From a virus (Duplodnaviria > Caudoviricetes): a DNA stretch of 64,000 bases. This document shows, in pieces, positions 11,348 to 38,759 of this stretch. The notes beneath the pieces were generated by a model. That model saw only the letters and a program-made list of their open reading frames with translations, was not told the DNA's origin and ran no database searches. The first letter of the stretch is position 1. The number at the start of each line of letters is the position of its first letter. The translations under genes were made by a program, and so were the position numbers. Location: positions 87,713 to 151,712 of the IMG/VR virus record IMGVR_UViG_3300035686_000002; one strand, written 5' to 3'.

Positions 11348-11389
11348 TTTAGTAATAATTCTTTGAACTACAAAATATTTAATTGTATT

Positions 11390-14776: not shown

Positions 14777-14799
14777 AAAAATTTAGAATAATTTTAAAA

Positions 14800-14970: not shown

Positions 14971-15010
14971 TTATTTTTTGATTTTCAATCAAGTATAACC
15001 GTTAATATGA

Positions 15011-17749
15011 TTATTTTGAGTTAACACGGGATTGTTGGCTGCTTTGAGTAATTGTCCCAATATCATTTAAATTTCGCAATTGGAGACGACCAAAATCTTG
15101 TTTAGAATCTGGCTTGTTACTTTCCCTTGGGGGTTCACGTCGAGAAGATCTAATAAAATCTACTGGCAACTCAGCGCCCACTTGCAAAGAAGTGCCAGGG
15201 GTTCGCAAATAAGGTTTCCCATTAACAGAACCCATAATTCCTACAGAATTATTTACTCCAAAAATTCTTCGCTGACGAACTTCACCATTGCAAACATAAG
15301 TTATCCGATCGCCTGACCTCATTTGTGGATTATACCAAACTAACAGCTCTTCCCGCACAGAATTTTGTGCATCTCGAATTCTAAAGTCAGTCTCTGCGGC
15401 TAAATATGCTTCTGTTAATGTTTTTGCGTAAGGATATGATAGTCCGCCACCCACTAACTGCTGCTGAAATTGCTTGTTTCCTTTTGGTGGCAAGTGTGCA
15501 GTTTCAATAAAGTATTGTCTCTTTCCGCGTTCTGGATTCTGCTCTTCCGGATCGACAGAATTGCTGCGCGGTTCAATTCTTTCCCACACCGACGGCAATT
15601 GTGTTGCAGCACCGGGGCGTCCGGTATTGGTTGAGCTTGTTTGCTCCGAAAGTTGACTGTTAAAATTAATGCCACCCGCAACAGCTTTTTTCCCGATTGA
15701 CAAAAACCGATCCTCTTCTCGCGTTGCGCGCGATCGATTAAAATCTGCCATTGTTTCGCCCGGTGGTAGGTTTACAGACCCTAGCCACTTAGGAGTTTTA
15801 ACAGAGGTAATCTTGACTTCTGAAAAATTCAACTCTTCAGAACCCGCAAACAGTGGAGGGTATTCCGGTTTGATGTCGGCTGGGGCGGCTGTTAAATTGT
15901 CGTTTCTGATTTTGATGTTTCGAGGATCTTCGGTTTCGGCAAATGCTGCCGAATATCGCTGCTGCTTACGAACAAAGCGAGGGTCAATCCATTTGCCGTC
16001 CCCAATATTGTCAATTCGCCTATACGTCAATTGTCCAGTTGGCGAGCATATTTCTTCTAACTCAAAATCTGGCAGTTCAACATCGCCGTAGTGAGCGTTA
16101 TAAGGAGAAAGGATATTCTCTTCAATTTCGTAGACCTGAATTTGTTTAGGCAGATAACAAACAAGTGAAGCTTGTTTGAAAGCAATGTCTGTCGGATCGT
16201 CCCCTGTTTCTGGTTGAAACTTGATGGTAGCAAAATCTTCACTCGGATCGGAGTCTTCGTTGGAAACGTCGCTAATACTTTCGGTTTGATGCACTGCTGT
16301 TCGCCAGCCAGTCGTCACCGACCGCAACCGCCAACCTTCTCTGTCGTACTCTACTACCTCAGTCGTGTCCTCAATAATTCCCCAAAATCCTAAAGGGTTA
16401 ACGCCGCTAATTTTTTTTGTAGTTGGATTGTAAAGGTCAATTCCACGGATGCCAGAAAACCCGTATTTTAGCGTCTGTTTTTTAAACGGCATCCCGTCGA
16501 TAGTAGTAATTTTTTCGTTTGTCTTTACATAATTTGACCCGCTTTCGTAAAAATTGATCGATGTGGTTTTGACTACGCCTAACCCAGAAGGAGGGGAAGA
16601 AGCGTTGGGATCTGATTCGGTTTTTTCCTCTTTTCGTGCGCGCCGCCGCCATTGCGCTTGGTTGGAGTTGTTGTTTTGCAGTTGTGTTTGCTCGTCAGGG
16701 TTCACGTAAAATCGGCTAATCTTTGTGGTTTCCGCGATCCGTTTTTTTTCTAATTTATTGTCATCCAAAAATAAACCCGTTATTTCTGCTTTTGGAAAGT
16801 AATGCTCTGAATGTAGGTATTTACTCAAATCTTCTTGCACCAGTGGCATTGTGCCGAATGCCGGGATAAAATCAGGAACTTGTTCGCCCAGTGGCAAGAA
16901 GTGGAAAGGGCGGGACGATAAACTTGTTGATCGGCGCAATTCTCCAGAAAAAGTGCGCGTAACTTCTTTGAGCAAGTCGGTCTCTGGTATGTTCCAATTT
17001 GGTGTTTTGTCCCAGCGTTTAACTGTGATTCGACTTGGTTCTGATAGCACTTTAAAGCAGCCATTTTGCCGCAATAGCGCATCTAGCTCAGACATAAAAT
17101 TGGTGCTAGTGTCGGGCCCCGCATCATTTGGGACGGTAATTTTACCCGCGAACCCTGAGTAACTGCCTCCTGCTCGACTGGCAATTTGCGCCAAGCTTAG
17201 ATATTGCGATCGCATCCGCACGTCTTTAGACCTGCTCGCTGTCGGATCGCAACGCTCGCCCGTTTCTGTATTGTCAAAATTCTTGAGAACCAGCGGCACG
17301 TCATCTGATGCCCAACCATGAGCGCCAGACAGGGACACAGACACAAGGATAATCGGCCCTAACGAGTTGCTCCGAGGGACTTCAATCATCCGCAGGTCAC
17401 TCACTCGAAATCCGATTCCAAACAGTTCAATCGGAACGCCGACGTGCAGTAGTTGACAAACCAAATATCGGTTTTCCCAGCCAGTCTTGAATTCAATTGC
17501 CCCGCTAGGTTCTGATTCAAAAGTTTCTGACCAGGAAATATTACCCGCCAAAATTGGGACTAAGTTGAGAAATTCTGGATAGGGTTCTGGGACGTAGTTC
17601 GTTCGCAAAATCTTTTTGGAACCCAAAACTCTGATACTTGAACCGATCGGCGGCGGTGGGGCGGTAAGGAGATTTCCCGGTGCTGCTATTGGCAAGCCGC
17701 CGGGTGTAGTGGGAGAATATGTATAGTTTTTGCGAACGGCTGAAACCAT
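15011..17749 (-). CDS. Large virion protein, putative tail hub/baseplate
   Basis: About 912 aa; C-terminal NPQMRSGDRITY motif of hub-type proteins; lies upstream of the tail fibre gene. Confidence 0.55.
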   Translation of the reverse strand: MVSAVRKNYTYSPTTPGGLPIAAPGNLLTAPPPPIGSSIRVLGSKKILRTNYVPEPYPEFLNLVPILAGNISWSETFESEPSGAIEFKTGWENRYLVCQLLHVGVPIELFGIGFRVSDLRMIEVPRSNSLGPIILVSVSLSGAHGWASDDVPLVLKNFDNTETGERCDPTASRSKDVRMRSQYLSLAQIASRAGGSYSGFAGKITVPNDAGPDTSTNFMSELDALLRQNGCFKVLSEPSRITVKRWDKTPNWNIPETDLLKEVTRTFSGELRRSTSLSSRPFHFLPLGEQVPDFIPAFGTMPLVQEDLSKYLHSEHYFPKAEITGLFLDDNKLEKKRIAETTKISRFYVNPDEQTQLQNNNSNQAQWRRRARKEEKTESDPNASSPPSGLGVVKTTSINFYESGSNYVKTNEKITTIDGMPFKKQTLKYGFSGIRGIDLYNPTTKKISGVNPLGFWGIIEDTTEVVEYDREGWRLRSVTTGWRTAVHQTESISDVSNEDSDPSEDFATIKFQPETGDDPTDIAFKQASLVCYLPKQIQVYEIEENILSPYNAHYGDVELPDFELEEICSPTGQLTYRRIDNIGDGKWIDPRFVRKQQRYSAAFAETEDPRNIKIRNDNLTAAPADIKPEYPPLFAGSEELNFSEVKITSVKTPKWLGSVNLPPGETMADFNRSRATREEDRFLSIGKKAVAGGINFNSQLSEQTSSTNTGRPGAATQLPSVWERIEPRSNSVDPEEQNPERGKRQYFIETAHLPPKGNKQFQQQLVGGGLSYPYAKTLTEAYLAAETDFRIRDAQNSVREELLVWYNPQMRSGDRITYVCNGEVRQRRIFGVNNSVGIMGSVNGKPYLRTPGTSLQVGAELPVDFIRSSRREPPRESNKPDSKQDFGRLQLRNLNDIGTITQSSQQSRVNSK

Positions 17750-17750
17750 A

Positions 17751-18083
17751 TTGTTTAAAATACACAATCCAAATTTAAGAACAGAGCCGACGCCGTTTCA
17801 ATCTTTGGGGGCGATCGTTTGTCGGGTGTTCAATCCAATTCTGCCACAACACCGAGCGCGGTTGTGTGTTTTAGGTTATGGAGTTGGGCGGGCAATTGAA
17901 TTAAACGCACCGCTGGTTGTTGATAATGGTTTTGCAACAATACCTGTGTCGGAGTTTGCGCGGGTAGATTATGTGGAAATTGGCGGGGATATTTACGCGG
18001 AGGCAGAGGATTATACCGAATTGCTACCGGGTGAGTACGTTTATAATGCTCAGACTGAGATGTTGACAATTAGAATTTACTAA
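17751..18083 (+). CDS. Hypothetical protein, probably virion-related
   Basis: TTG start; ELLPGEYVYNAQTEMLTI; abuts the 17749 gene head to head. Confidence 0.5.
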   Translation: MFKIHNPNLRTEPTPFQSLGAIVCRVFNPILPQHRARLCVLGYGVGRAIELNAPLVVDNGFATIPVSEFARVDYVEIGGDIYAEAEDYTELLPGEYVYNAQTEMLTIRIY

Positions 18084-18149
18084 ACAAAAAATAGCTAAAG
18101 TTCAGTCTACTCCAATTATCAATGCTTCTAAGTTGAACAGTTAACAAAG

Positions 18150-18749
18150 TCAATACTCTTCAAATGAAACACGCTCAATAGTTACATTCTTAACAGGATG
18201 TAAAGGAATGACCTGTGGCGGCTGACTGTCACAAGAAATGGCCAAAAAATGTTGAACGTTTTTTGTGAGAAGATTTTTTGCTACAAATACAATTCTGTCT
18301 ATTTTACCTGATAACGTCACAGAAATATCATCTGATACCTGTGTTAATAATATCCTCAGAAATTCAGAAAGTTCTTCGTTTATCACAATGTCAACAAATA
18401 ATTCTTCAGGCTTATTAAAGTTTCCTAACCAGAGAGTACGATTTGCTGATAAAGCGAAACAAGGCACAGACTCCAAAAGTTTTATCTTGACTACATATTT
18501 AGGAGGCTCATAGAACCGAGCAGGGTGTTGAACTACTGCTCCATACTCGCTAAGAGTCCGAACAGTTTGAAAGGTTTGTACGATTTCATAAGCAGATTCG
18601 TCTAAGCTTTCTAGTGCAACCGCCAATTCAAAAGCTTCTTCATCAAATTCTGAAAAAACAAGACAATTGCCTTCTAGCTGCACATTGTACAAATGCTTGC
18701 AAACATTTTTAGCATTATCTGGTAGTTTAAATTCTATTCTTTGTGCCAC
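18150..18749 (-). CDS. Hypothetical protein
   Basis: 199-aa ORF with a GTG start. Confidence 0.6.
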   Translation of the reverse strand: MAQRIEFKLPDNAKNVCKHLYNVQLEGNCLVFSEFDEEAFELAVALESLDESAYEIVQTFQTVRTLSEYGAVVQHPARFYEPPKYVVKIKLLESVPCFALSANRTLWLGNFNKPEELFVDIVINEELSEFLRILLTQVSDDISVTLSGKIDRIVFVAKNLLTKNVQHFLAISCDSQPPQVIPLHPVKNVTIERVSFEEY

Positions 18750-18868
18750 GACGTAATACCTAATTGAGGGGATAATCCAATAAAATAAAATATTTACTTA
18801 ACTCGAATAGTTCCAAGCTAAGTAGCTTTTACGCAAGAGTTAGAGTTAGCGCAAAAGCTAAAACTAAA

Positions 18869-19669
18869 TTACATCAAACCCCGCAGGACTTTCACAATCG
18901 ATTCCTGCCACTTTGTGTGCTGGTAGCTGGTATTGTCTCGCCCTTTCCCCGTCGCCAGTGTGTTACTAGAGTACCGCTCACCTAGCTCTGTAGGCAGATA
19001 AGCGGGTTCTGTCTTACTTTTGTTGTGATTCTTCACTTGATACCCGTTCTCGGTCAGCAGTGCATTTACAACACGGGCTGACACTCCGAGTCGTTGGCCG
19101 ATTGCGGTCGGAGTGAGTAATACTTCGGGAATGGAGTTGGTAGCAGCTAGTAAGCTGTGTGCCGCCTCAATATCAGCTTTAAGTTCGGGATAATGGTATT
19201 GAATGCGGTTAAGAATAAAGCCATTAACCAACGGCGTGGGGACGGATGACATTGCTGATCAAATCAAGTCAAGTTTAGCTGGGGTTATTTCAGCACTTGG
19301 TGGTCGCGGGGCGGGTGCAGAAGCAGCGACAATCGAAACAGCTCCTTCTGTCATCAATGTCCGAATCTGTTGAGAAACCCAAATCCGAAAGCCAACATTA
19401 CACCACGCAGCAAAGTCAATTGCCACCTCCTCAATTGCCCAAGTCCCTTGATTTTCTGGCGTTCCACCTTACACCGTTTCCGTTACGGGAATTCCCGTAA
19501 CGGACTCAAACTCTGCCAGAAACTCGGTTGCAGACTTTGACCGGGTGTAATCGTTAACCTGCTTACCTGCCGCCTTTGCCATATCGGTCAAGCTTACCCA
19601 AACACGATCACTCCGACGCTCAAACCGAATATTCTTGCCAGCAAAATCTAAAACTGTTAAACTTTTCAT
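18869..19669 (-). pseudogene. KilA-N antirepressor pseudogene with two in-frame stops
   Basis: ORFs 19469..19669 and 18869..19252 share a frame. The sequence between them reads ETV*GGTPENQGTWAIEEVAIDFAAWC..LDLI*SAMSS. The C-terminus has an antirepressor-type HTH (LTPTAIGQRLGVSARVVNALL). Confidence 0.85.
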
Positions 19670-19772
19670 TGTTCGCCTAATCTAGGTAGGTGGACGGCCG
19701 ATGTTAAGCGGGATACTAGCAATATCTCGATCGGCTCAATTAATTATATCACGATCGCCCCTCCAACTAAAC

Positions 19773-22460
19773 ATGACTAACCAGAAGGATATCGCCAAAA
19801 AACAAGCGGAAATTGTGGGTCAGTTGCAACAATTCCCGGTCGGGCGTACTAATTCGGGCGGCAGGGCGGGAGGGATGGTTGAGGTAGTTGTAACTAACCC
19901 GTTACCAGGGCAACCCAGTGTTGTACAAGCAAAGTGTGCCAACGATTGTCCGCCGGGTGAGGTGCAGTTGTTAAAAGCCGATGATGGAAGCTATATTGCG
20001 CTTTCTCCGAATGCGGGAAAAGAGACTTCAACAGCAACAACACGACAAATAACTAAAAAAGATCCAATTGTGCCTAAAAAAGATAAGGAAGTGTGGCCCG
20101 GTACAGTTGTGTTTTTGTATTCACGCATTCAACCAAACACTGTAAATCTTTCAAATACAGGTGCAGCTAAAGACGACGAGACAAGCTACGACTTAGTTAG
20201 AAATGTTTTTTCAAATCCAGGTTTTAACAATAGTAATATTTCTAGTAATAATGCTTATGGAATCAGAAGAAGACTTGACAAATTAGGAGATTATACTACA
20301 TTGGAAAACGCCTTAAATAATATACTAAAAGCTGATAGGTTGGAAACACCTGGTGGTGGCGGTAGTGGCGGCGGTGGTGGTCGTGGTAGAGATGACTCTG
20401 TAATAGGAAGCGGATCGGAAGACGACGTTACTATTTGGTATTATATTGGCGACCCTACCGATGCTCTACCAGATGGAAGAATATTTTCTGTTACTGGTTT
20501 TTCTTTGCATCCTGCTAATGGCAATGTGGTAGGATCTGGGCCTGGCTTTTGCATGGAAGTTGCTAGAGGAAGTTACGCTGTATCTTGTATTTTTCCGCAT
20601 GAGATAATAGGTTCAGGCCCATTGACCTTTGAACTAAGTAAAATGAATCCTGGGTTAGGTGGAAAAATAGGTTATGCAGGAACAATTAACAAGTGGCGCG
20701 CAAAAGATTATTTAGTCAAGACTCCTATTAGTTATTTTAGGAGTATTCCACCCGCTACAGAGCCATATCAAACTCCTGTAAATTTTCCTTCTGGTGAAAC
20801 GCTAAACCCTAATATAGATTATTGGTTTTTTACCAATAATAATTGGTTTCGTTATGGATGGCCAGACCCACAATATATAGGGTGTGCTTCTACATCATGG
20901 ATAAATATTGTAGCCGAAGATTTAAATGCTAGTTATATTTGTGGTGGTTCTATTGATAATGATAAATGGTATTGGGGAGGAGATGCCGATCCAAATCAAG
21001 CGGTACTAAATAAAGATAATCCAAGTGGGTTTATTGGATCGGAAGGAATGTTTCTCTGTTGGCGCGGACACGTAGAACACGCTGGGGGTGCCTTTGCGTT
21101 TATGAACGATTTTAAGACTTATTGGGGTCTTACCGGAAGTGTGACAAGGCTTGGTTCCGTTAATCCTTATGGTTGTGAACTGCCGCCTGAGGATGGAGGA
21201 AGTGGATATCCAGTCGCACCTCCTGGTGACGCTTCTAGATATCCTATTGAAGCTTCTGGAAGGATAGGTGAAATTTGGCTAAAAATTTGCAAAGAAGATA
21301 TGGAGCCAATTGATTTTAAATTACCCTTTGAATTTAATGCAATAGTAGAACGATTAAAAGTAATAGGAGGTGGAAGTCTTCAAAATGGTTCTAACTTTGA
21401 AAATGGCAAAGATATGCTCAAATTTGAAACTTTTGGAATGGCTGGTGGAAGCAATCTTACAGCAGAAGCTTTTGACCTTGAAAATCCGCATGGAACGTTA
21501 GCAATTGACAGTGAATATGCTTATGTTAATATTTCTTACGGAGCCGAAAGAGATTTTGAAGAACCTTTGGCTTTACCCATAAAACCAAGAGTAGCTAATC
21601 TTGGTTTTGGCACTCCTAAAACTGGTAACTATGGTTCAGATAATTTTTATTTACGTATACCAAGCTTAAATCCTACGTTTTCTTCAGGTATAAAAGTATC
21701 AGGCGATCCCCGTGACCCAGTATTGGACACTGACCCTCGGGTAGTCAAAGATTGCTTCAGTTGTTGCCAATCTTATGTAATACTTTTGCCGACAAAAGAA
21801 AATCCAATACCTACAATAGTTGCATCACAAAAATATAAAAGAGGTGAAACTATTGCAATTACCGCTGCCAGCCCAGACACTCAATTTGACAACAAATTTC
21901 TAATTGCAGATTTTAGAACAGAAGTTTACAAAACTGGTACAGCAGAACCTGGATTAAAAACTGAACCAAAACCATATTATGCAACTTTTGGCGGACTACC
22001 CGCTCTAATACAAATCGTTGATTACACACCTATTAATATTAATAGTTTAGCACCATTATACTATAAAAACAAAGATGTCTGGACTTTTATGGATTGGGTA
22101 CATTGGCAATTTCAAGAAGCTCCAAGAGCATATAATCCATTGACAACGATTTTACCTCCGGGTGTAAGGACTAGATCGAATGAAGTTTATGGAATAATTT
22201 TTGATTTAGACAACAAATTTGGCAGACATGGTAGAGCTGAATCTATTATGCCATCAAGTGTATTTAGTTATAGTGGAAGTTTTGCTAACATTAATTCTCC
22301 TACTTATGGTAATTATAGAGGAACAGCACATTATCCATTAGCTATTTCATTTAAAGAGCAACTAATAGGAAATGGATTATTTGAGAATAATCAATTGGTT
22401 AAATGGTTCAGGCTTACTCCTGCCAGTTTTCCTATTTTTGGTCAGTTAAAACGAAATTAA
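19773..22460 (+). CDS. Large Gly/Asn-rich protein, probably a virion/tail component
   Basis: About 895 aa, beta-rich composition, poly-Gly linker; start moved to the ATG at 19773. Confidence 0.6.
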   Translation: MTNQKDIAKKQAEIVGQLQQFPVGRTNSGGRAGGMVEVVVTNPLPGQPSVVQAKCANDCPPGEVQLLKADDGSYIALSPNAGKETSTATTRQITKKDPIVPKKDKEVWPGTVVFLYSRIQPNTVNLSNTGAAKDDETSYDLVRNVFSNPGFNNSNISSNNAYGIRRRLDKLGDYTTLENALNNILKADRLETPGGGGSGGGGGRGRDDSVIGSGSEDDVTIWYYIGDPTDALPDGRIFSVTGFSLHPANGNVVGSGPGFCMEVARGSYAVSCIFPHEIIGSGPLTFELSKMNPGLGGKIGYAGTINKWRAKDYLVKTPISYFRSIPPATEPYQTPVNFPSGETLNPNIDYWFFTNNNWFRYGWPDPQYIGCASTSWINIVAEDLNASYICGGSIDNDKWYWGGDADPNQAVLNKDNPSGFIGSEGMFLCWRGHVEHAGGAFAFMNDFKTYWGLTGSVTRLGSVNPYGCELPPEDGGSGYPVAPPGDASRYPIEASGRIGEIWLKICKEDMEPIDFKLPFEFNAIVERLKVIGGGSLQNGSNFENGKDMLKFETFGMAGGSNLTAEAFDLENPHGTLAIDSEYAYVNISYGAERDFEEPLALPIKPRVANLGFGTPKTGNYGSDNFYLRIPSLNPTFSSGIKVSGDPRDPVLDTDPRVVKDCFSCCQSYVILLPTKENPIPTIVASQKYKRGETIAITAASPDTQFDNKFLIADFRTEVYKTGTAEPGLKTEPKPYYATFGGLPALIQIVDYTPININSLAPLYYKNKDVWTFMDWVHWQFQEAPRAYNPLTTILPPGVRTRSNEVYGIIFDLDNKFGRHGRAESIMPSSVFSYSGSFANINSPTYGNYRGTAHYPLAISFKEQLIGNGLFENNQLVKWFRLTPASFPIFGQLKRN

Positions 22461-22464
22461 TTTT

Positions 22465-23181
22465 ATGGCTTATTATTCAGGTGAACATAAAGTATACAGT
22501 TCGATGGGATGTTTTTCTACAGTTCCTCAAGTGATTGGAAACCCTTTTGACTTAGTAGATTACAACAATTCATCTGGAACTGGTTTTTTACCAGGTCAAT
22601 GTCAGGCGTTCTTAACGACAAATAAGGAATTTATATTGTTTGTTGAACAATATAACCTTAGTCCAGCACCACCTGATAGTCCTGTTGGAACTGCACCATT
22701 AACTTTTAGTAATAAAAAAGTATATCCAGTAAAAGTGACTGGATTAAACCTACCTCTTGTTAAAAATTCTACAAATAATATATCTTCGGTGACTGTTTTT
22801 TGGAGAGATGAGTTAGTGCGTCATGGAAGTGTTAGTCCTAGTATTGATAAAGCAAATAGTTTCCCAGCAGGAGCATATAGACCAGGTTTCGGTGAAACAA
22901 TTGTGAAAGATTTAGATAGACCGTTAGAATCAGCAACTGTACAAACAAATAATCTAGGACTACCAAATGTCCCAAGTCTGCCAAATTTTCAACAACAAAA
23001 CGGTTATTGCGGAATTTTGGGTAGATTAATGTCGGTTGCCAGCTATATCGATCCAGAGCTTGCCAAAAAATACGACGCTAGCAAAGGAAAGAAAAAGAAA
23101 AAATCACTTAACTCACAAACCTATCAAGAGTCTCCGCAATACCCAGCTTATACACCATATCAAAACAATAGTGGTTATTAG
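22465..23181 (+). CDS. Hypothetical protein, coupled to 19773..22460
   Basis: Starts 4 bp after the upstream stop. Confidence 0.65.
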   Translation: MAYYSGEHKVYSSMGCFSTVPQVIGNPFDLVDYNNSSGTGFLPGQCQAFLTTNKEFILFVEQYNLSPAPPDSPVGTAPLTFSNKKVYPVKVTGLNLPLVKNSTNNISSVTVFWRDELVRHGSVSPSIDKANSFPAGAYRPGFGETIVKDLDRPLESATVQTNNLGLPNVPSLPNFQQQNGYCGILGRLMSVASYIDPELAKKYDASKGKKKKKSLNSQTYQESPQYPAYTPYQNNSGY

Positions 23182-23987
23182 GCTTGAGCTGGCGCAATAG
23201 AGTTAATTTGTTCAATTGAGCGCTCAGGATTAAATTTAACTTTAAGCCTGTGAGTTTTGTCCATACCTCGCCGTTTTAACGCTGCTTCAATAGCAGCATT
23301 AGCTAACAACACGATTTGCAACGGATTTTTTTGATGTGTCATATCAGGGTGATTTCTGTAAAAATACAGAAATTCATGGATATGGCTAATGCGAGTAATT
23401 TCAGATATACGAAGGCACAAATCGTAATCCTCCATCCGATCAAACTTCAAGTCAATTCCGCCAACCTGCTCGTAAACTGATCGACGCATCAGCCTAAAGT
23501 GAAATGTCATAAAGACACAGAGCAGTTTTTCTGCTGAGTAGTCATAACTACAGCGCCAGCCCGGTCTTAACTGCGTTCCGTCTTCATCTACTTCGATGTA
23601 ATTGCTGTAGACCATTCCGCAGCCAGCGTCATCATCTAATACTGCTACCATGCGCTCGATCGCCTGCATATCAAGCCAGTCGTCGGAATCAACCTGCCCA
23701 ATGTATTCACCCCGCGCTAATCCATATCCCGCCTTGAGCGCTTGGGCTGCACCTCTTTCGGTTTCTTGGGTTCTATCCACCTTCAAAGCAAGCAGTCGCA
23801 CCCGATCGTCCTCCATCGCAAACTGCTCGGCGATTGCCAGTGTTCCGTCAGTCGAACCATCGTCTACAATAATCAGTTCAAGATTGCGGTAAGTTTGGTC
23901 AAGAACCGATTTGACAGCGATGCCGACGTATTGTTCTCGGTTGTAGACTGGAATAATAATAGAAACCCTAGGCGCATTTTCTTTCAT
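23178..23987 (-). CDS. Glycosyltransferase family 2
   Basis: VSIIIPVYNRE, IIVDDGSTDGT, VDSDD and EDYDLCLR motifs. Confidence 0.92.
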   Translation of the reverse strand: MKENAPRVSIIIPVYNREQYVGIAVKSVLDQTYRNLELIIVDDGSTDGTLAIAEQFAMEDDRVRLLALKVDRTQETERGAAQALKAGYGLARGEYIGQVDSDDWLDMQAIERMVAVLDDDAGCGMVYSNYIEVDEDGTQLRPGWRCSYDYSAEKLLCVFMTFHFRLMRRSVYEQVGGIDLKFDRMEDYDLCLRISEITRISHIHEFLYFYRNHPDMTHQKNPLQIVLLANAAIEAALKRRGMDKTHRLKVKFNPERSIEQINSIAPAQA

Positions 23988-23991
23988 ATTG

Positions 23992-24213
23992 TCAACAATC
24001 TTGTAAAATATCCATTAATTTTTCTGCAAGCTCGTAAATTAAGTTCTCAATTTCATCTAAAGCTTCTTTGCCAGCAAAGTCTGAACGATGATTAATTTTC
24101 GTTGCGTATCTAACATAACGAGCTTCACGTCGCAATTCGTTTATACAACATTGTATAATGTTTGCGTCTGCACTTCCATCTAATAAAAGTTTCCGAGCCA
24201 CATCTATAGTCAT
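23992..24213 (-). CDS. Small hypothetical protein
   Basis: 73 aa, ends 4 bp before the GT2 start. Confidence 0.5.
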   Translation of the reverse strand: MTIDVARKLLLDGSADANIIQCCINELRREARYVRYATKINHRSDFAGKEALDEIENLIYELAEKLMDILQDC

Positions 24214-24553
24214 TTAATTGGATTGATTTATTGGCGTCGTTTTTTACGTCAACAGGTTAACGTCTCGCTGTTGTAGCAAAAAACGACGCCATTGATTATT
24301 ACATTTTGCTCCTACTGTTTACAAAGTGTTATCGTTTTGTTCTAGGAATTTTATTCGGATCTACAACGATTTCATCTTCCTCTGTTGGAAAATCTTTTCG
24401 ATTAGGTTTTTCCTTGGGAGTTTCTTCAGGTTTTTTCTCTGTCATGATATTTGCACCCTAATTTCCTGTAAAGTTAAGACCTGCTTGTGCTTGCATTTTT
24501 GCATTACACAGCAGATCAAATAAGCTTACTATATAATTTTAAGCGCAAATCAC

Positions 24554-25396
24554 ATGAAACGCATATTTTTAGTCGGCGCGCCCCGCAGTGGGACTACAAT
24601 TTTGCAAAGTCTGCTTGCGGCACACCCGCTAATCACCAGTTTCCCGGAAACTAAGTTTTTTCACTACTTGCTCACGGATGGGCTTTCCCAGAAACTACCC
24701 GATCGTCTCTACAAATTCTTTCACAAAGAAATTAACCGCCCCGATTTTTTAGAAAACGCCCCAGACCTACACCCTCCGTTAATGAGCAACAGGGTCAGGT
24801 GGTTCGTTGAAGTGCTTGATAAGCTGGCGATCGAACAGAAAAATGACATTTGGCTAGAAAAAACCCCAGAACACGTCGGTTTTATTCCAGACATTCTTCA
24901 ATACCTGCCAGAAGCAAAATTTATCCATATCGTGCGACACCCGCTGGACGTTGTAGCTTCCATGCGAGCGGCAACTAAAAACCCACTGTCAAACATTCTG
25001 TGGGGCGGAGAATGGACGCTGGAGTTCTGTGTCCAACGTTGGAACGACGCAGCACTCATCAATCATGCGTACTCGCACCAGCCAGAGCAGCACTTAGTTG
25101 TCCGATATGAAGGTTTGTTGCGGGACAAAACTGTGTTTCTGTCAAAATGCTGCCATTTTATTGGCGTCGAGTTCGATCACGAAATGTTGTCGAACTATAA
25201 AGCAGAGGGGCTGCGGTTGGGGTTGCGGTTGCCGTGGCACGAAGGGATTGATCGGGCGATCCAACCTCCAGCGGTTGCGAAATGGAGGCAAAGTCTCAGC
25301 AAGCAGGAAATCAAGTATATCCTCAGAGCAACAGAAGATTTGCGATCGCGCTTTGGCTATATGTATCCAAGCCCAGAAAATCCTGAGCTAGAGTAA
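24554..25396 (+). CDS. PAPS-dependent sulfotransferase (Sulfotransfer_3-like)
   Basis: IFLVGAPRSGTT (5'-PSB), EKTPEH, IHIVRHPLDVVAS (3'-PB) and VRYE motifs. Confidence 0.92.
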   Translation: MKRIFLVGAPRSGTTILQSLLAAHPLITSFPETKFFHYLLTDGLSQKLPDRLYKFFHKEINRPDFLENAPDLHPPLMSNRVRWFVEVLDKLAIEQKNDIWLEKTPEHVGFIPDILQYLPEAKFIHIVRHPLDVVASMRAATKNPLSNILWGGEWTLEFCVQRWNDAALINHAYSHQPEQHLVVRYEGLLRDKTVFLSKCCHFIGVEFDHEMLSNYKAEGLRLGLRLPWHEGIDRAIQPPAVAKWRQSLSKQEIKYILRATEDLRSRFGYMYPSPENPELE

Positions 25397-25397
25397 C

Positions 25398-25640
25398 TTA
25401 GTTCTTCCAAAACAACCAAGCAGAGCAAATATGGGCAATACTCATCCCTATAGCTGCCCCAGGAATCATAGCTAATACTGTTCCTAACATAATTTCATCT
25501 TCGCTAAGAAACCGTGCCTGAGAAGCCATGAAATAAATAATCGCACACTGAAATGCAATAAATATCAGGTTAACAATCGTTGTCTTGACTTGGAGTTTAT
25601 GGATATTGTGATCAATTTCTTATAGTCTTTTGTTAGTCAT
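25398..25640 (-). pseudogene. Two-TM small membrane protein (holin-like) with an early in-frame TAA
   Basis: MTNKRL*EIDHNIHKLQVKTTIVNLIFIAFQCAIIYFMA..GTVLAMIPGAAIGMSIAHICSAWLFWKN; about 0.7 kb from the lysozyme. Confidence 0.5.
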
Positions 25641-25787
25641 TAAGATTTTCCTATTTTATTTTAATTTCAATTTACATATTTATTGTAAGTGTTTATCATA
25701 TAAGTGTCAACACTTGTTGGAATAGGTTTTGTTTAATTTTTTAGTAGAATAGTAGATACACCAAACTGTTAAACAAAAATTTAAATA

Positions 25788-26285
25788 ATGAAAAACACTA
25801 TTGTAGCCTACGAATATTGGGACGCAGAATTAAAGAACCAATCTAAGAAACGGCTAGCAGGATTAGAAAAAGCGATAACTGCAACAGGGGCTATTGTCAC
25901 AGATAGGCACGAAGAGAAATATTTTGAAGGCAAACTGCAATGGCGAAACCCATTACTGTTGAAAGTTCGATTACCCAAAGGAAAACGCTGGGAATTCATT
26001 CTCGTCTCTGGATGTACGGTATGGCTAGCTCAACCGCCACGGGTTCAGATAGGGTTGCGAGATACGGCGGGCAGATTTAACGGCACAAGATACTGGGATT
26101 CTCCAGCTATTCCGCTACGAGGAAACCACGACGACGCAAAGATTCGGCGGCGGTATCGGTTACACCCAGAACACGCGGCGTATATTGCCGATTATAAACC
26201 TGAATTAAACGGAGGATATGAGGTGATCAAAGGTGCTGATATTGTATCGACGGTGCTGGGAGGAGATTTAGGCTTGTTGCTCTAA
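25788..26285 (+). CDS. Hypothetical protein
   Basis: 165-aa ORF. Confidence 0.7.
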   Translation: MKNTIVAYEYWDAELKNQSKKRLAGLEKAITATGAIVTDRHEEKYFEGKLQWRNPLLLKVRLPKGKRWEFILVSGCTVWLAQPPRVQIGLRDTAGRFNGTRYWDSPAIPLRGNHDDAKIRRRYRLHPEHAAYIADYKPELNGGYEVIKGADIVSTVLGGDLGLLL

Positions 26286-26353
26286 TTTGCCGATTGCACA
26301 AACGAAATCTGTGATTGTGATACTATTGCCCTAAAGTTCTCACAGAAAAGACT

Positions 26354-26821
26354 ATGAGTAATATTAAGGAACGACGCCAAATTAACCAGAGAGGGCTGGC
26401 ACTCATCAAAGAATTTGAAGGTTGCCAACTAGAAGCTTACCTGTGTCCCGCCGGAGTCTGGACGATTGGGTACGGACACACTCTATCGGCGGCTCACGGG
26501 ATGTCGATTGACGAGACTAAAGCAGAAGCGCTGCTGCGGGAAGATTTGCAGGAGGCGGAAGAAGCGGTAGATCGGTTGGTCACAGTCCCGATCAATGAGA
26601 ATCAGTTCTCGGCGTTGGTATCGTTTGCCTTCAATGTTGGCGCGGGCGCGTTGCAAGAATCAACTCTGCTGTCTTTGCTCAACGCTGGTGCAGAAGTTGA
26701 GACGATCGCCGCTCAATTTTTGCGATGGAATAAAGCAGGTGACGAGGAATTAGCCGGATTAACCCGTCGCCGTCATGCCGAGCGAGCATTGTTTTTAGAA
26801 CCTGTAGATCCAATTCTATAA
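26354..26821 (+). CDS. Phage lysozyme / endolysin (GH24)
   Basis: GLALIKEFEG..YLCPAGVWTIGYGHT, QFSALVSFAFNVG and GLTRRRHAERALF motifs. Confidence 0.95.
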   Translation: MSNIKERRQINQRGLALIKEFEGCQLEAYLCPAGVWTIGYGHTLSAAHGMSIDETKAEALLREDLQEAEEAVDRLVTVPINENQFSALVSFAFNVGAGALQESTLLSLLNAGAEVETIAAQFLRWNKAGDEELAGLTRRRHAERALFLEPVDPIL

Positions 26822-26839
26822 AACTTACCTAAAACTACT

Positions 26840-26890
26840 TTACAGTTTGAAGCGTCGTTAACTTAAAGTTAGCGGCGCTTCAAACTGTAA
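26840..26890. terminator. 24-bp-arm hairpin between convergent genes (bidirectional terminator)
   Basis: TTACAGTTTGAAGCGTCGTTAACT-TAA-AGTTAGCGGCGCTTCAAACTGTAA. Confidence 0.75.
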
Positions 26891-26911
26891 TATTAATTAA
26901 TATTACGATAC

Positions 26912-27430
26912 TTAAACGCGATTAAACCACTCTGGATTTTCTGCCATACGTTTTTCCGTATCTTTCCGACAGAATTCTTCAACACGATCGGCTGAAACTC
27001 CACTTAAGTGCCACCCCTTTAAACCTTCTTCGCTAAGCAAATATGTTTCATTCTGCGCGATATCCAAAAAAGAGTCACTTTTTAAGACAAGATACTCAAT
27101 CTTTCCACCAGAAAAAGCTCGCACTTTGTTTTGTAGCTCAGTTGCCGATAATTCTTCATTTGTCATTTGAACACTCCTTGATTTATTCGTCTCTTCTACT
27201 CTTTCAGTATGTATCATACAACATACTCTGTCAAGATGTTTCTGAAAGATTTTTCTAACGTACTCTGATCGGCTTACCCCGTCCGGGATTGAAGCTTCCA
27301 ACGCGTCTGACATTTCTGCGTCCAACCAAACTTCCCACTTAACCCGCTTATTTCTGTATGTTGCGATCGCCTGCTGCCGCGCTTGTCTGCCTTTCGAAGT
27401 TAGTTCGTATCGCTTTTGTTTTGTCGTCAC
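26912..27430 (-). CDS. RHH-like regulator in frame with a second small gene (internal start at 27166)
   Basis: WEVWLDAEMSDALE..VSRSEYVRKI; an internal TTGACA-N17-CATACT and an AGGAG RBS precede MTNEEL. Confidence 0.55.
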   Translation of the reverse strand: MTTKQKRYELTSKGRQARQQAIATYRNKRVKWEVWLDAEMSDALEASIPDGVSRSEYVRKIFQKHLDRVCCMIHTERVEETNKSRSVQMTNEELSATELQNKVRAFSGGKIEYLVLKSDSFLDIAQNETYLLSEEGLKGWHLSGVSADRVEEFCRKDTEKRMAENPEWFNRV

Positions 27431-27521
27431 AATGTCACCTTAATCCAAATCTTGATACATACTAGACGAAATCCGAGTTGTTTTCGGACAGACAGGGTAG
27501 TCTCGCTCATCCAATTAAGGA

Positions 27522-27690
27522 GCGAGGGTTATTTTGTTTTTTCTTATAGATGAGTCTGTCAATCAGTTTTTTATATTGTATAATCTTTTTGATTGGCAGA
27601 CTCATCTATTGTATTTTCTATTCTGTAAAGCTCTTGACTGTTTAGACTGGTTAGATTTTCTGTTTAAGAAGTTCAGCTAAATTTTTAGTA
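27522..27690 (+). repeat. Dispersed element, copy 6 (3' part decayed)
   Basis: GCGAGGG..ATAGATGAGTCTGTCAATCA..TATAAT..TGATTGGCAGACTCATCTAT..CTGTTTAGACTG. Confidence 0.9.
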
Positions 27691-27754
27691 ATCCTGTCTT
27701 GACGACATAAACACTTTATGTTAAACTGCTATCAAAGTTTAAAAAAGTAAAAAC

Positions 27755-28777
27755 ATGACTTGGAACAATGAGACAGCTATCAACGACTTACTAGCGCTAC
27801 CTTCTGACACTGTAAAGGTTGTTGCCTTTAGTGGAGGGAAAGACTCTACAGCGTTGCTCGGTTTAATGCTTGCTGCTGATCGCCAAGGCTTGAAAAACTG
27901 GAGAGTGATCAACTCAGATACTTTAATGGAAATCCCTTTTTTGGAGGAACACGTTAAAGCTTGTGGTTCTATCCTTGAAGAAAAAGGTATTCAATTTGAG
28001 AGAGTAACAGCACCGATGCAAAGACGGTTTTTTTACAGTTTGATAGGCAAAGGGATACCCTCTCCCAGTCGTAATTTTCGATGGTGTACGCAAGCTCTAA
28101 AGATAGACCCATTAGAAAAAGCACTAAAAAATATTCCATCCTATTTATTATTGAACGGAGAAAGGTTGGGAGAATCAATCAAGAGGGACACAAAGCTTGC
28201 CAGTAAAACTTGCGATGGCACAAATGAATGTGGCACGGTAGAGATTAAAAAAAAGATGAAAAATACTGAAATAGTCCGACCTCTATTAAACGCAACAGCT
28301 TGCAATATCTGGGATACCATTGCAGAGAACGATATAGAGAAAGAACTGCTACCGGGAAGCTTCAACAGATTAAACAACGTTTATTCTATCAATGATGATG
28401 ATAACTCTAAAAGTTTGAGGACGGGCTGCATAGGTTGCCCGCTGATAAGCAAAGATAAAAGTTTAGAAAAGTTAATATCAGTGTATGAAGACTATTCGCC
28501 ACTGGGTCAGTTAAGAGCGTTGTATGACTCGACTAGAAGCGAGAGCAACCGGATCATGCGTCCTGACATGAAAAGCAAAGGAGCAGTGAAACTTGAAGTT
28601 AGGAAAAAAATTTGGGCTGAAATTCTAGAGATCGAGTCTAAAGTCTGTACCGCCTTCCCAGGGTTCATCCTTGTCCAGCAGGACGAGAAAGACGCGATAG
28701 AGAAAGCTCTCTCAGAAGGGCAATACCCTAAAGGCTACACCCGACAGCACATCCAAGAGCAAGAATCACTCATTTAA
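27755..28777 (+). CDS. PAPS-reductase family, DndC-like Fe-S protein
   Basis: PP-loop AFSGGKDS, DTLME, FRWCTQALKIDP, GERLGES and RTGCIGCP motifs. It has its own promoter (TTGACG-N17-TAAACT at 27699) and terminator (about 28796-28818). Confidence 0.85.
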   Translation: MTWNNETAINDLLALPSDTVKVVAFSGGKDSTALLGLMLAADRQGLKNWRVINSDTLMEIPFLEEHVKACGSILEEKGIQFERVTAPMQRRFFYSLIGKGIPSPSRNFRWCTQALKIDPLEKALKNIPSYLLLNGERLGESIKRDTKLASKTCDGTNECGTVEIKKKMKNTEIVRPLLNATACNIWDTIAENDIEKELLPGSFNRLNNVYSINDDDNSKSLRTGCIGCPLISKDKSLEKLISVYEDYSPLGQLRALYDSTRSESNRIMRPDMKSKGAVKLEVRKKIWAEILEIESKVCTAFPGFILVQQDEKDAIEKALSEGQYPKGYTRQHIQEQESLI

Positions 28778-28831
28778 CCCACAACACCTCCTGTCGCCCC
28801 TTTTAACGGGGCTTTTTGTTGAATATCTGAG

Positions 28832-29022
28832 GCGAGAGATAATTTAATCCTTGTAATAGATGAGTTTGTCACTCAGTTTTTTATATTCTATAATCTTTTT
28901 GTGTGACAAACTCATCTATTATAACCTCGACTCTAACTATACTTTACCTGTAGAGGTTGCTTTGATTTTGAAAGCAGGAATTTAAGCAGTCTTAACAAGT
29001 AGAAGTGGCAAATATTTCTTAT
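28832..29022 (+). repeat. Dispersed element, copy 7
   Basis: GCGAGAG..ATAGATGAGTTTGTCACTCA..TATAAT..GTGACAAACTCATCTAT..CAGTCTTAACAAG. Confidence 0.95.
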
Positions 29023-29034
29023 TTTTTGAAAAAT

Positions 29035-29247
29035 TTAATTACTTAGCCTCAAGCAGTGTCCTGTTCTCATAGCACATTCAAACGTGTATTTATGTTCAAC
29101 TGCGTACAGGCTAGCATGGGGGCTTGCAGCTTTCAGTGTTTTGATAGCAACACGATCGTCAAACAAAGCTTTTATTTCAACAGTCCTGTTGTTGATGTTG
29201 CCATCACCATAATTGAATTCAAAAACATCGCCAATATTTAATTTCAT
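29035..29247 (-). CDS. Small SH3/KOW-like protein between copies 7 and 8
   Basis: MKLNIGDVFEFNYGDG..TVEIKALFDDRV; start moved out of the repeat to the ATG at 29247. Confidence 0.5.
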   Translation of the reverse strand: MKLNIGDVFEFNYGDGNINNRTVEIKALFDDRVAIKTLKAASPHASLYAVEHKYTFECAMRTGHCLRLSN

Positions 29248-29318
29248 TAGATTTAATCTTGATAATTTATTTGACACAATACTAACAAACAAGGCGGTTC
29301 CAGTCTTCGGAGTAAAAA

Positions 29319-29510
29319 GCGAGAGATCGATCAGCGTTTCGTTATGGATGAGTCTGTCACTCAGTTTTTTATATTCTATAATCTTTCTAATTGACAAACT
29401 CATCTATTCTGTTCTCGATTGTATATACCGTCTACCTGTAGAGCTTGATCGATTTTTGAAAACACGAATTAAAGCAATCTCAACAACTGGAATGAACAAA
29501 TGACTCTCGC
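29319..29510 (+). repeat. Dispersed element, copy 8 (complete)
   Basis: GCGAGAG..ATGGATGAGTCTGTCACTCA..TATAAT..TTGACAAACTCATCTAT..CTCTCGC. Confidence 0.95.
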
Positions 29511-29660
29511 ATCAAAACCTGATCGCCGCCGCTAATTTGCCAGAGACTCGTTAAGTCCTGACAAAAACCTTTGATATTGTGTTATGATGGGAAAATTAAG
29601 CCACAAGGACGCTAGCACGTCCTTTTATCAGTGGCAGTCCACCTACACAACAGGCGAACA

Positions 29661-30716
29661 ATGAGTAGTATAGCAGTTTTGCGCACAGAACGCGACGGCG
29701 TTGAGTTTTTCACCGTTGTAGCCACGGGGGAGTCGGGAATGAGTCAAAGTGGTCTAGCTCGCGCCTGTGGTATCAGCAAACAATCTATGTCAGAGTTTGT
29801 GACAAAGCTTAATCCGTCAGGCAGATCGTTTCAAAAAGCGCTAAAACCTTCTACTAGCAAAGATTTAGCACCGTCAGGCAAGTCGTCTCAAAAAACGCTG
29901 AAACCTTCTACTGGTAAAGGCTTTACACCGTCAGGCAAAGCACCCTCAAAATGGTTAGAACCTTTTAGAGGGAAGGACTTGACACTCATAACTAACTACT
30001 CCAGCCCCGATGCTAATACTCGCAATGTCACGATCTACACGGCTGAGTTCTGTGGTGCAGTAATCAAGCATTATGCTTACAGCGGTTCTGAGACGGCTCA
30101 AGACTTTGATTTTTCACTTGGTGTCATCGGCTTGACTTCCTACATTCAGAGTCAAACAGGATGGTTGCCGGAACAGTTCAAGGCAGCGCCAGAAGAACAC
30201 GACAAGCTGGATCAATTTCTCGGTTTAGCGATGGAATGGGATCGAGGGCCAATGATGGTAGTTGATTGGGAAGGTGAAGTCGATATGTCCGATAGTTGGA
30301 CATTTTTTGACGCTGTTGTTTTCTCTGGTTTTACCCCTGAAGAATTCATCGTATTTGAAGATGAGACAAGAGAACTAGGACTGCAAAAACTCAGTAAAAG
30401 CGAACAAGTCAAGTTATTCTTTAAGCGAAACCCTGAGATTCAAGAAAGGCAAAAACCTTACACAGAACGCATTGAAAGAATTTTGAGACTGCCAAAAAAC
30501 TCGCAATTGTTTCAGATGACTTTTTTTGAGGAGTATGGATGTAATTTGGACAGTCTTTATCTTAAGGTAGAAACTTCTGCTAGTGCTTTACGATTGTACA
30601 GACTAGGATACGCAGATCGAACACAGTACGCCGACCCCCGATATCCATACTCCCGTGACCCTGATTGTATGGAAGGGTGGAACGCTAACACCAGCGCAAA
30701 CCTTATTAATCAATAA
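29661..30716 (+). CDS. Antirepressor-like DNA-binding protein with three 19-aa repeats
   Basis: DGVEFFTVVATGESGMSQSGLARACGIS (HTH-like); PSGxxxxKxLxPxxxKxxx repeated three times. Confidence 0.7.
   Translation: MSSIAVLRTERDGVEFFTVVATGESGMSQSGLARACGISKQSMSEFVTKLNPSGRSFQKALKPSTSKDLAPSGKSSQKTLKPSTGKGFTPSGKAPSKWLEPFRGKDLTLITNYSSPDANTRNVTIYTAEFCGAVIKHYAYSGSETAQDFDFSLGVIGLTSYIQSQTGWLPEQFKAAPEEHDKLDQFLGLAMEWDRGPMMVVDWEGEVDMSDSWTFFDAVVFSGFTPEEFIVFEDETRELGLQKLSKSEQVKLFFKRNPEIQERQKPYTERIERILRLPKNSQLFQMTFFEEYGCNLDSLYLKVETSASALRLYRLGYADRTQYADPRYPYSRDPDCMEGWNANTSANLINQ
29814..29984 (+). repeat. Three tandem 57-bp in-frame repeats
   Basis: CCGTCAGGCA recurs at 29814, 29871 and 29928. Confidence 0.9.
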
Positions 30717-35082: not shown

Positions 35083-35394
35083 TTGCCTTTTTAAATTTTT
35101 AACTATCGATATTTTACCACAAATCGAATCTTCACTTGAGATTTGGCGTTCTCACTGTCGCTCCGCTTTATATGGTTGAACTGGTGGGTTAGAGCGGTCA
35201 AGTATTCGCAGCCAACAAAAGATGATTTAGAAGTCGCCACCAACTACCCCGCTTATGCGCTGCACAACTGCCCAGATTTTAAGCAGAAGCCACAACCAGA
35301 ATCCCGGACGATACAGTTGCACTGATTGCGGCTGCGGTTTTCTGTTGCGAGGTATGGGTTTGAGAGATTGAGAAAAAGAATTTTGGTTTAGGGG

Positions 35395-35428
35395 TTGACA
35401 TATCAGTGTAGATATACGATGATAAATA
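35395..35428 (+). promoter_or_regulatory. Early-type promoter, copy A
   Basis: TTGACA-N8-TAGATATAC-GATGAT-AAATA (17-bp spacer). Confidence 0.8.
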
Positions 35429-35458
35429 TAAGAGCAACAAACACAAAGACTAAATCAA

Positions 35459-36891: not shown

Positions 36892-37152
36892 ATGAAAGCA
36901 ATCCAGTCACGCGCAACCTTTATCGATTTACCTGAAGCCAAATCTCATTTTGACGTTATGGCATCACAAGATGGATTTTTAGGCGGAAGAGTCGTAATAT
37001 ACCACAAGCTTATATTTGTTCAAACTTTTTTTGAGTGCAACCGGGCTATGGTGTGCAGAGGAAATTATAAAAGTCCTAGCGAGATCGTTACCTTGATTCC
37101 AGCAGATAAAATTTCAAAAAGTTTTACTTTGCCCCTTGACATATCAAAGTAG
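36892..37152 (+). CDS. Hypothetical early protein
   Basis: AATCAAATG start context after promoter B. Confidence 0.65.
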   Translation: MKAIQSRATFIDLPEAKSHFDVMASQDGFLGGRVVIYHKLIFVQTFFECNRAMVCRGNYKSPSEIVTLIPADKISKSFTLPLDISK

Positions 37153-37169
37153 ATATACTATGATAAATA
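37136..37169 (+). promoter_or_regulatory. Early-type promoter, copy C
   Basis: TTGACA-N8-TAGATATAC-TATGAT-AAATA. Confidence 0.8.
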
Positions 37170-37199
37170 CATACCAAGAAAAACACAGGAGATAAGCCA

Positions 37200-38412: not shown

Positions 38413-38712
38413 ATGGAAGAAACACGAAGACAAGCACAGCGCAAATACTCAGCAACAGAGAAGGGGCGGTCGAGCCGTAACAAAGCGCAGCGCAAATACT
38501 CAACAACAGAAAAAGGGAAAGAGGTTCAGCGAAAGTATGAAAAATCGGAGAAAGCACGGGAGCGCAAGCGGCGATATCTCGAAAGCTTGACGCCAGAACA
38601 GCGGGAAAGGTTGCAGGAGAGACAGCGCGAGTCTAAACGAGTGAGCGCTCAGCGGCGACGGGAGAAAGAAAAGCAAAAGAATTTGGCGTCAGGGGTTGAC
38701 AGATTAGAATAG
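38413..38712 (+). CDS. Highly basic protein with QRKYxxxEK repeats
   Basis: Three QRKY..EK(G/A) repeats. Confidence 0.7.
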   Translation: MEETRRQAQRKYSATEKGRSSRNKAQRKYSTTEKGKEVQRKYEKSEKARERKRRYLESLTPEQRERLQERQRESKRVSAQRRREKEKQKNLASGVDRLE

Positions 38713-38729
38713 ATAGACGATGATAAATA
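38696..38729 (+). promoter_or_regulatory. Early-type promoter, copy D
   Basis: TTGACA-N8-TAGATAGAC-GATGAT-AAATA. Confidence 0.8.
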
Positions 38730-38759
38730 GAAAGACAACAACACACAGAAAACAAATCA

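Follow-up and report, generated by a model that had tools for sequence, protein, structure and literature searches.

The DndC-like locus and the dispersed element

Positions 27,522 to 29,510 of a 64,000-nucleotide stretch of viral DNA (the window) hold a gene for a PAPS-reductase/DndC-like protein between copies of a dispersed intergenic element, which is the subject of this analysis. The window makes up the final 64 kb of a virus record of 151,712 bp (IMG/VR IMGVR_UViG_3300035686_000002, here G000; GC 41.6%, CheckV completeness 93%). Repeat finding and an nhmmer profile located 11 copies in the window, all on the plus strand and with E-values of 1e-13 to 1e-61; the element described in a first-pass annotation of the DNA is thus real. 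Outside the window, nhmmer detected 13 further copies, six of them reversed, which brings the genome total to 24. The element is non-coding and 150-230 bp in size, and every copy is intergenic.

Copy 6 (27503-27720, +) carries a promoter-like CTGTCA-17-TATAAT at 27556-27584, and its 3' part is replaced by other sequence. The DndC-like gene (27755-28777, +; PF01507, E=2.9e-12) lies behind a promoter-like site of its own (27699-27727, +; TTGACG-17-TAAACT). A terminator-like hairpin with a T-run (28796-28822, hairpin 28796-28812, +) ends about 10 nucleotides (nt) before the conserved box of copy 7 (28817-29042, +; box 28829-28838). The palindrome of copy 7 covers 28856-28919 (arms 28856-28871 and 28904-28919, +) and includes a promoter-like TTGTCA-17-TATAAT with 11 of 12 matches (28866-28894, +); the 3' box of this copy is degenerate. 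A putative small open reading frame (ORF; 29035-29247, -, 70 amino acids (aa) from ATG), for which no Pfam family was found, separates copy 7 from copy 8 (29301-29532, +; long form, nhmmer E=2.3e-61). The order copy 6, promoter, DndC-like gene, terminator, copy 7, small gene and copy 8 is as first annotated. The top three promoter-like sites in 27300-29700 are those within copies 6, 7 and 8.

A second unit is bracketed in the same way. Copy 9 (46727-46954, +) precedes a dnaN-like gene (46993-48165, +; PF00712) and the gene after it (48137-48751, +), a pair with a match to phrog_947, and the box of copy 10 (48801-49020, +) begins about 12 nt past a terminator. The annotated order stood, while the 'KOW' label of the second gene found no Pfam support. 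Copy 1 (1869-2095, +; nhmmer E=2e-56) is a long form with the 3' inverted box CTCTCGCATC. It had been placed at a gene end and begins at the stop codon of a 2177-aa gene. Copy 2 (2119-2241, +; nhmmer E=1.7e-13, repeat family D3) is degenerate and partial and stands in tandem with copy 1. Copies 3 (4801-5027, +), 4 (7118-7349, +) and 5 (10054-10287, +) are long forms. An equal start-to-start spacing of 2937 bp (1892 to 4829 and 7146 to 10083) was dismissed as a coincidence, the blocks between having no shared homology. Copy 11 (59936-60167, +) was found with the nhmmer profile.

Copies are missing from the structural modules. In G000 the head block (58.7-89.5 kb) and the tail block (98.0-115.2 kb, or 10.3-27.5 kb of the window) are free of copies. 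The tail block is bordered by copy 5, and the annotated absence of copies from the tail/lysis genes was borne out, with none in 10288-27502. Copies point in the direction of the next gene in 15 of 23 cases and of the previous gene in 12 of 23, so the orientation of the element is independent of the neighbouring genes.

Source genome, relatives and searches

A 17-mer scan of IMG/VR found a single relative, G001, with 109,786 bp and a nucleotide identity to G000 of about 77% (range about 75-80%). A distant third genome, G002 (63,906 bp), was found with a profile of the 1147-aa replication protein (54% aa identity). This protein has about 18 further relatives (P0122-P0140) with identities of 53-90%. 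G001 has 20 copies of the element and G002 has 22 of a shorter homologous form, and the head and tail blocks of all three genomes are without copies.

The HIP1 octamer GCGATCGC occurs 28 times in G000 against one expected occurrence, with a similar enrichment in G001 and G002. Because of this enrichment and the biocrust origin of the only sequencing run, the data fit a cyanobacterial host and an uncultured soil-crust phage lineage. Contigs of this single biocrust DNA run, which may be the source sample, break at the repeats, and copies cross-map. A search of 50,697 phage records gave no match to this lineage, and a plasmid search gave none to the element. Exact-pattern scans of metagenome and genome collections returned chance hits only, all without the element; host-type genomes, plasmids and other metagenome contigs gave no match to its core. 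Searches for tRNA and tmRNA genes found none. Rfam gave no family at gathering score for the window, and an E-value search yielded only a chance-level match to a miRNA hairpin. Homologues of the DndC-like gene occur on other metagenome contigs (P0001-P0004) with 73-93% identity. IMG/VR loci with DndC-like genes were rejected as relatives, being at most 33% identical and without the element.

Anatomy of the element

The anatomy was read from an alignment of the 44 copies of G000 and G001. In order, the parts are a box, some 25 nt of variable spacer, a palindrome spanning about 64 bp, about 75 conserved nt and an interchangeable 3' module. The box is GAAGCGAGAG, aligned as AGAAGCGAGAG, and is at least 85-95% conserved. 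The palindrome reads ATAGATGAGTYTGTCAC-TCAGTTTTTTATATTYTATAATCTTTYT-...TGACAAACTCATCTAT. Its right arm, TGACAAACTCATCTATT, is nearly invariant, is the best conserved part of the element and would form positions +3 to +27, approximately, of the predicted transcript. It is much better conserved than the left arm, whose changes are without compensation. Conservation reaches maxima of at least 95% at the box, the palindrome and the right arm. The stretch of about 75 nt ends in CTGTAGAGGTTGCTTTAGTTTTG and includes one half of an RNA hairpin. The long form, about half of the copies, continues with the second hairpin half and ends in CTCTCGCTTC, the box inverted; the inverted boxes GAAGCGAGAG...CTCTCGCTTC are 10-11 bp long. 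Some 6-7 copies have a 3' terminator (A-run, GC-hairpin, T-run) about 95-125 nt past the predicted start. The remaining copies run into further repeated modules or directly into a TTGACA-type promoter of the next gene.

A promoter-like TTGTCA/CTGTCA-17-TATAAT with at least 9 of 12 matches occupies a fixed position in 31 of the 44 copies, covering the left arm and the loop. On the bottom strand none of the 44 copies reaches this score. The palindrome, with arms of 16-20 bp, is paired in 85.5% of alignment cells and has the -35 hexamer in the left arm and the -10 hexamer in the loop. The proposed helices are paired in 83-92% of cells, compared with about 41% when partners are slid. In the downstream hairpin about 81 G.U cells stand against 14 C.A cells, and this asymmetry argues that the plus strand is read as RNA or folded as a single strand. 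A terminator upstream of the element had been reported for copies 7 and 10, which is correct for these two. It does not extend to a general rule, as a canonical terminator ends 9-16 nt upstream of the box in only about 9 of the 44 copies.

Rearrangements at element copies

Some 17 copies occupy orthologous positions in G000 and G001, and several of the differences between the two genomes have their junctions in copies. The 31.5 kb between 20.86 and 52.34 kb of G000 are inverted relative to G001, with endpoints in the inverted copies E19707(-) and E52209(+). The flanks are exchanged reciprocally: in each of these two copies the upstream flank corresponds to one G001 copy and the downstream flank to the other, and the switch falls within the core of about 120 bp. 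The window segment 4801-10287, consisting of copies 3, 4 and 5 and the two blocks between them, corresponds to a single copy in G001, B37183. The upstream flank of B37183 matches that of copy 3 and its downstream flank that of copy 5; its informative sites form a mosaic in which no simple single crossover is resolved. The 3' part of copy 4 is 93% identical to G001 copy B39504, and copy 4 with the gene at 7361-7768 (-) adjoins the copy-1 orthologue in G001 as a relocated unit.

At the site of the DndC-like locus in G001 a single copy, B21463, is flanked by the lysozyme gene (26354-26821) and by gene 29631. The comparison with G000 showed that the ORF at 26912-27430, the DndC-like gene and the small ORF are all missing from G001. 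Within copy 8 homology sets in again where the palindrome starts, with the blastn boundary at G000 117054. The left junction of the missing stretch is not at an element.

The copies within a genome have been homogenised. Before TGAC, 12 of 22 G000 copies and 0 of 20 G001 copies have the tetranucleotide TGAT, while TACG is found in 3 and 13, respectively. The palindromes of orthologues are no more alike (0.754) than those of paralogues (0.756). The genome-specific variants, together with orthologues being no closer than paralogues, thus point to gene conversion among the copies.

The association of breakpoints with copies was also counted. Seen from G001, breakpoints occur in 16 of 20 intergenic regions with a copy and in 58 of 119 without (odds ratio 4.2, p=0.008). 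From the G000 side the numbers are 13 of 23 and 75 of 187 (odds ratio 1.9, p=0.10). Accessory regions only gave p=0.037 and p=0.13 for the G001 and G000 sides. Between anchor genes, gene content differs in 17 of 18 intervals with an element and in 31 of 62 without (p=4e-4, a value confounded by interval length). The expectation that gene-content breakpoints in relatives fall at the element therefore holds for the inversion, the block loss and the relocation and fails for 75 of the 88 G000 breakpoints, which lie without an element. As these alignments show, the copies have served as crossover points for an inversion, for deletions and for moves of gene blocks.

The G002 form and conserved positions

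The copies in G002 are 130 bp long, 85-95% alike and present on both strands. They have the form CAGAAGCGAGgt, about 22 nt, ACTGTAGAGTCTGTCGTTT, a loop, AAACGACAGAC... and ACTCGCTTCTAG, and the inverted boxes are a perfect 11-bp pair. The form is homologous to that of G000 because the box and the GAGTCTGTC arm are identical, because GACAAACTCATC is present in some G002 copies and because reciprocal profile matches fall on annotated copies only. The loop contains an invariant 15-bp perfect palindrome, CTTACTA-T-TAGTAAG. Besides the 22 copies, G002 has tandem repeats of about 120 bp (L125-L128, e.g., 55719-56362), and the flanks of its elements are made of few recurring upstream and downstream module types.

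All three genomes share at least six element positions next to orthologous genes. Two are on both sides of the dnaN unit: dnaN and the next gene are bracketed by elements in G000, G001 and G002, with an element upstream of dnaN in each and an extra gene, c75, within the G002 unit. The others are located after the C5-methylase gene and upstream of the a63-like gene, of the T5orf172 gene (a86-like) and of the replication gene.

Recombination enzymes

The first-pass annotation had noted no recombinase gene in the window, and the search of the rest of the replicon for tyrosine or serine recombinases and HUH nucleases agrees with this. Phage_integrase (PF00589), Resolvase and Y1_Tnp were not found in G000, which is 93% complete. 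Phage_integrase was also not found in G001 or G002, while all control genomes gave hits. RecA, RecT and YqaJ families were not found in G000. The only transposon-type gene detected is TnpB-like (62163-63377, -; OrfB_IS605 and Cas12f1-like TNB) and is not adjacent to any copy. The stretch around it (G000 149.25-151.7 kb plus 1-0.73 kb) is missing in G001, where an a221-like gene and the C5-methylase gene are adjacent; by this comparison it looks like a G000-specific insertion. Because the flanking genes are adjacent in G001, the contig ends of G000 join in a circular map.

Neighbouring genes and repeats

Genes beside copies that are conserved in all three genomes are located at G000 817-1872, 52498-53355, 5912-6178 and 50182-50673. 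The conserved element-adjacent products are a C5 cytosine methylase, a Dam-like N6-adenine methylase, an HNH_3 endonuclease and a T5orf172 (GIY-YIG-like) protein. The gene downstream of copy 8 (29631-30716) contains three tandem 57-nt (19-codon) repeats at 29814-29984.

Intergenic regions are mosaics of several repeat families. A structured leader with nested hairpins, TTAAGCCACnAGGACG...CGTCCTTTTATCAGTGGCAGTCCACCTA, is present at window positions 29581-29665 and about 60190-60280 and at about 13,940-14,010 of G000, with orthologues in G001. In each genome at least three genes have it between their start codon and a -10-like box; it may be a shared translational operator or an element of the 5' untranslated region. 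A second repeat family, D5, contains the promoter-like unit GGGGTTGACATATCAGTGTAGATATACGATGATAAAT and occurs at 35371-35440, 37112-37181 and 38672-38741, each time before a block of small genes. Another repeat family, TTGACAnnnAAGGGTTTATGT, is located downstream of many long-form copies. Three element copies are followed by a shared intergenic module, ...GGTTTGATATTTTC...GGAGTTGGA.CGAG...TTAAGCGCCGATCGCCTGCGCTTCAAG...CCCTTGACA, at 7.0-7.3 kb and 36.5-36.7 kb of G000 and at 91.5-91.7 kb of G001.

Function of the element and alternative explanations

The promoter-early stem-loop (PeSL) elements of the T4-type phages RB49/phi1, PST/T4 and nt-1/KVP40 are the closest parallel (Arbiol et al. 2010, PMC2839356; Comeau et al. 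2014, PMC4122927). Mini-circles arising through exchange of adjacent copies are a further trait of PeSLs. They are defined by a sigma70 promoter with an overlapping stem-loop and by variable regions in which relatives differ as 'motif-gene-motif' versus 'motif'; homologous exchange between copies was proposed as their mechanism (PMC2839356). We favour the reading that the element is a PeSL-like regulatory boundary cassette of transcription units and a substrate for homologous recombination, and not an integron-like system, with a probability of about 50%. Host RNA polymerase would initiate rightward within the palindrome, and transcripts would begin with the right arm. When read through, the palindrome may serve as an attenuator or a processing hairpin in the RNA. 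The comparison of genomes shows that the copies, with about 170 bp of homology repeated 20-24 times, recombine with one another. It revealed gene conversion, inversion between inverted copies and, between direct copies, blocks that were lost, gained or moved. The enzymes are most likely the general homologous-recombination machinery, of the host or of a phage type that was not recognised, and not a dedicated site-specific recombinase.

Several points weigh against this reading. The promoter, the start site and the role of the hairpin are predictions from sequence. In 8-9 of 23 G000 copies the gene that comes next is convergent, and many of the genes downstream are preceded by promoters of their own. 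In contrast to a classic PeSL, the element thus cannot be regarded as simply its neighbour's promoter. Covariation in the helices of the 44-copy alignment was not above that of shuffles, so that the structure is not proven by compensatory change. No sigma70-like site was found in the loop of the 22-copy G002 form, and the promoter is therefore a feature of the G000/G001 branch and not an ancestral or universal function. Interval length confounds the breakpoint statistics, which are also weak when seen from G000. The box is conserved also in copies without an inverted partner, which hints at a protein-binding role that a regulatory boundary cassette leaves unexplained. The conservation of the box and the invariant right arm may reflect protein binding, an RNA function or both.

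A protein-binding role is central to a possible, if unlikely, alternative that overlaps with the favoured reading. Box and palindrome would be operators for a phage-encoded protein that controls or insulates about 20 unit boundaries, and recombination would be a side effect. Conservation of the box at 85-95% or more in each of the 43 full copies, whether or not an inverted partner exists, is expected of such an array. With a centre of 1 nt, the 15-bp palindrome of G002 is more apt for a dimer on duplex DNA than for an RNA hairpin, the genome-specific core variants fit co-evolution with a trans-acting factor and the palindrome pair 80-124 shows symmetric change (UA:8, CG:6). However, the far better conservation of the right arm, with unmatched changes in the left, is unexpected for a symmetric dimer site, and no candidate protein was identified beyond a sub-threshold CI-like helix-turn-helix at 49407-49922. 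Another alternative is a family of small-RNA genes, in which each copy is an independent ORF-less unit for an RNA of about 110-150 nt with an invariant 5' 17-mer as trans-acting seed or as protein sponge. The one-way promoter of 31 of the 44 copies, the invariance from about +3 to +27 ahead of a hairpin with plus-strand G.U bias, the terminators 95-125 nt downstream in some 6-7 copies and the independence from the neighbours' orientation (15 of 23 co-directional with the next gene) agree with RNA genes. Yet most copies have no terminator, the G002 form has no promoter, no Rfam family matches and covariation is not significant. A search of G000 for the invariant 16-mer or its complement with up to three mismatches gave nothing elsewhere beyond two weak, chance-level hits. 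We regard small RNAs as quite doubtful.

The remaining alternatives concern the mobility of the copies or of the genes between them. Spread by transposition as miniature inverted-repeat transposable elements (MITEs), with the 10-11-bp inverted boxes as terminal repeats and the regulatory features as secondary, is very unlikely. It could account for the inverted boxes, perfect over 11 bp in G002, the 85-95% similarity of the G002 copies and the tandem copies (copies 1 and 2 in G000, B39862 and B39504 in G001). But target-site duplications are not visible at the flanks, conservation runs on past the boxes in G002 and the half of the copies that lack the 3' box keep the rest. About 17 orthologous positions are shared by G000 and G001, and at least six are kept in G002 despite protein identities of 40-55%. 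TnpB is the only transposase found, and the core is missing from host-type genomes, plasmids and other metagenome contigs as far as searched. Highly improbable is a site-specific cassette system of the integron/attC or HUH type, in which a recombinase reads the folded nested palindrome and cassettes move as circles. In its favour, the nested inverted repeats are reminiscent of attC, junctions of rearrangements fall inside elements and homology resumes at the palindrome base in two cases. The integron analogy of the first-pass annotation was nevertheless abandoned, since a tyrosine or serine recombinase or a Y1 HUH enzyme is absent from the G000 hits, Phage_integrase is absent from those of G001 and G002 as well, and the units have their own promoters and face both ways. 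Furthermore, 75 of 88 gene-content breakpoints are without an element, the box sequences, as read, do not match attC core sites and the concerted evolution of the whole core fits homology-driven exchange. A targeted exchange system of an unrecognised kind seems rather improbable. Here box, palindrome and box would be the recognition structure and cassette exchange an evolved function; for example, an extruded cruciform might be cut by the conserved HNH_3 or T5orf172/GIY-YIG-like protein.

Relation to known systems

The analogy to PeSLs made in the first-pass annotation fits the published description (PMC2839356). Both are repeated intergenic motifs in which a sigma70-like promoter is joined to an overlapping stem-loop. 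Both number dozens of copies, which cluster with accessory genes and seldom occur in core modules, and relatives differ by motif-gene-motif versus motif, with indels and replacements bounded by motifs. The element differs by its lineage of unrelated, uncultured cyanobacterial phages, by its size (150-230 bp versus about 100 bp) and by additional parts: the upstream box, the palindrome with 16-20-bp arms, the conserved, presumably transcribed leader with a hairpin and the swappable 3' modules. The 3' end of a PeSL abuts the start of the next gene, whereas the element is not fused to a gene and often faces a convergent one. A distance of 35-270 nt separates it from the start of the next gene, which often has a promoter of its own in front, and the abutment of Shine-Dalgarno sequence and start codon typical of PeSLs was not found. 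In addition, the form in the distant relative is without a promoter.

Correia elements (CREE) of Neisseria and other promoter- or terminator-bearing MITEs are structured intergenic repeats of 100-230 bp with inverted ends. CREE can supply their neighbours with promoters, terminators and RNA-processing hairpins. The element resembles them in size, structure, intergenic location and inverted ends. It differs in having no target duplication and no sign of recent insertion polymorphism, in positions that are kept across deeply diverged genomes and in being borne by a phage and not by a cellular chromosome. Integron attC sites share with it an imperfect nested palindrome between single-gene units, and direct copies could in principle release circles. 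In contrast to integrons, which have an IntI tyrosine recombinase and an attI site, no IntI-type recombinase was found in these genomes and the core sequences are unrelated. Integron cassettes are promoterless, co-oriented and read from one common promoter, whereas promoter-like sites belong to the DndC-like and dnaN units themselves and neighbouring genes are found on either strand. The stoperators of cluster A mycobacteriophages are asymmetric 13-bp sites oriented with transcription. They share with the element some 20-30 dispersed intergenic copies of a conserved site in a phage, in their case read by a single factor. The element, in comparison, is longer than 150 bp, palindromic and independent of gene direction.

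PeSLs are already known from T4-like phages; new is a differing and richer architecture of this kind in an unrelated cyanobacterial phage lineage. The reciprocal inversion with both crossovers inside copies is a clean comparative proof. The element combines three properties seldom shown together: positions kept next to the same genes across deep divergence, homogenisation within genomes and use as rearrangement junctions. It offers a defined sequence of 170 bp for promoter, attenuator and protein-binding assays. It also provides a concrete model of how large phages may exchange accessory genes and yet keep transcription units intact; the genes in question here are those for a DndC-like enzyme, an ADP-ribosyltransferase and methylases.

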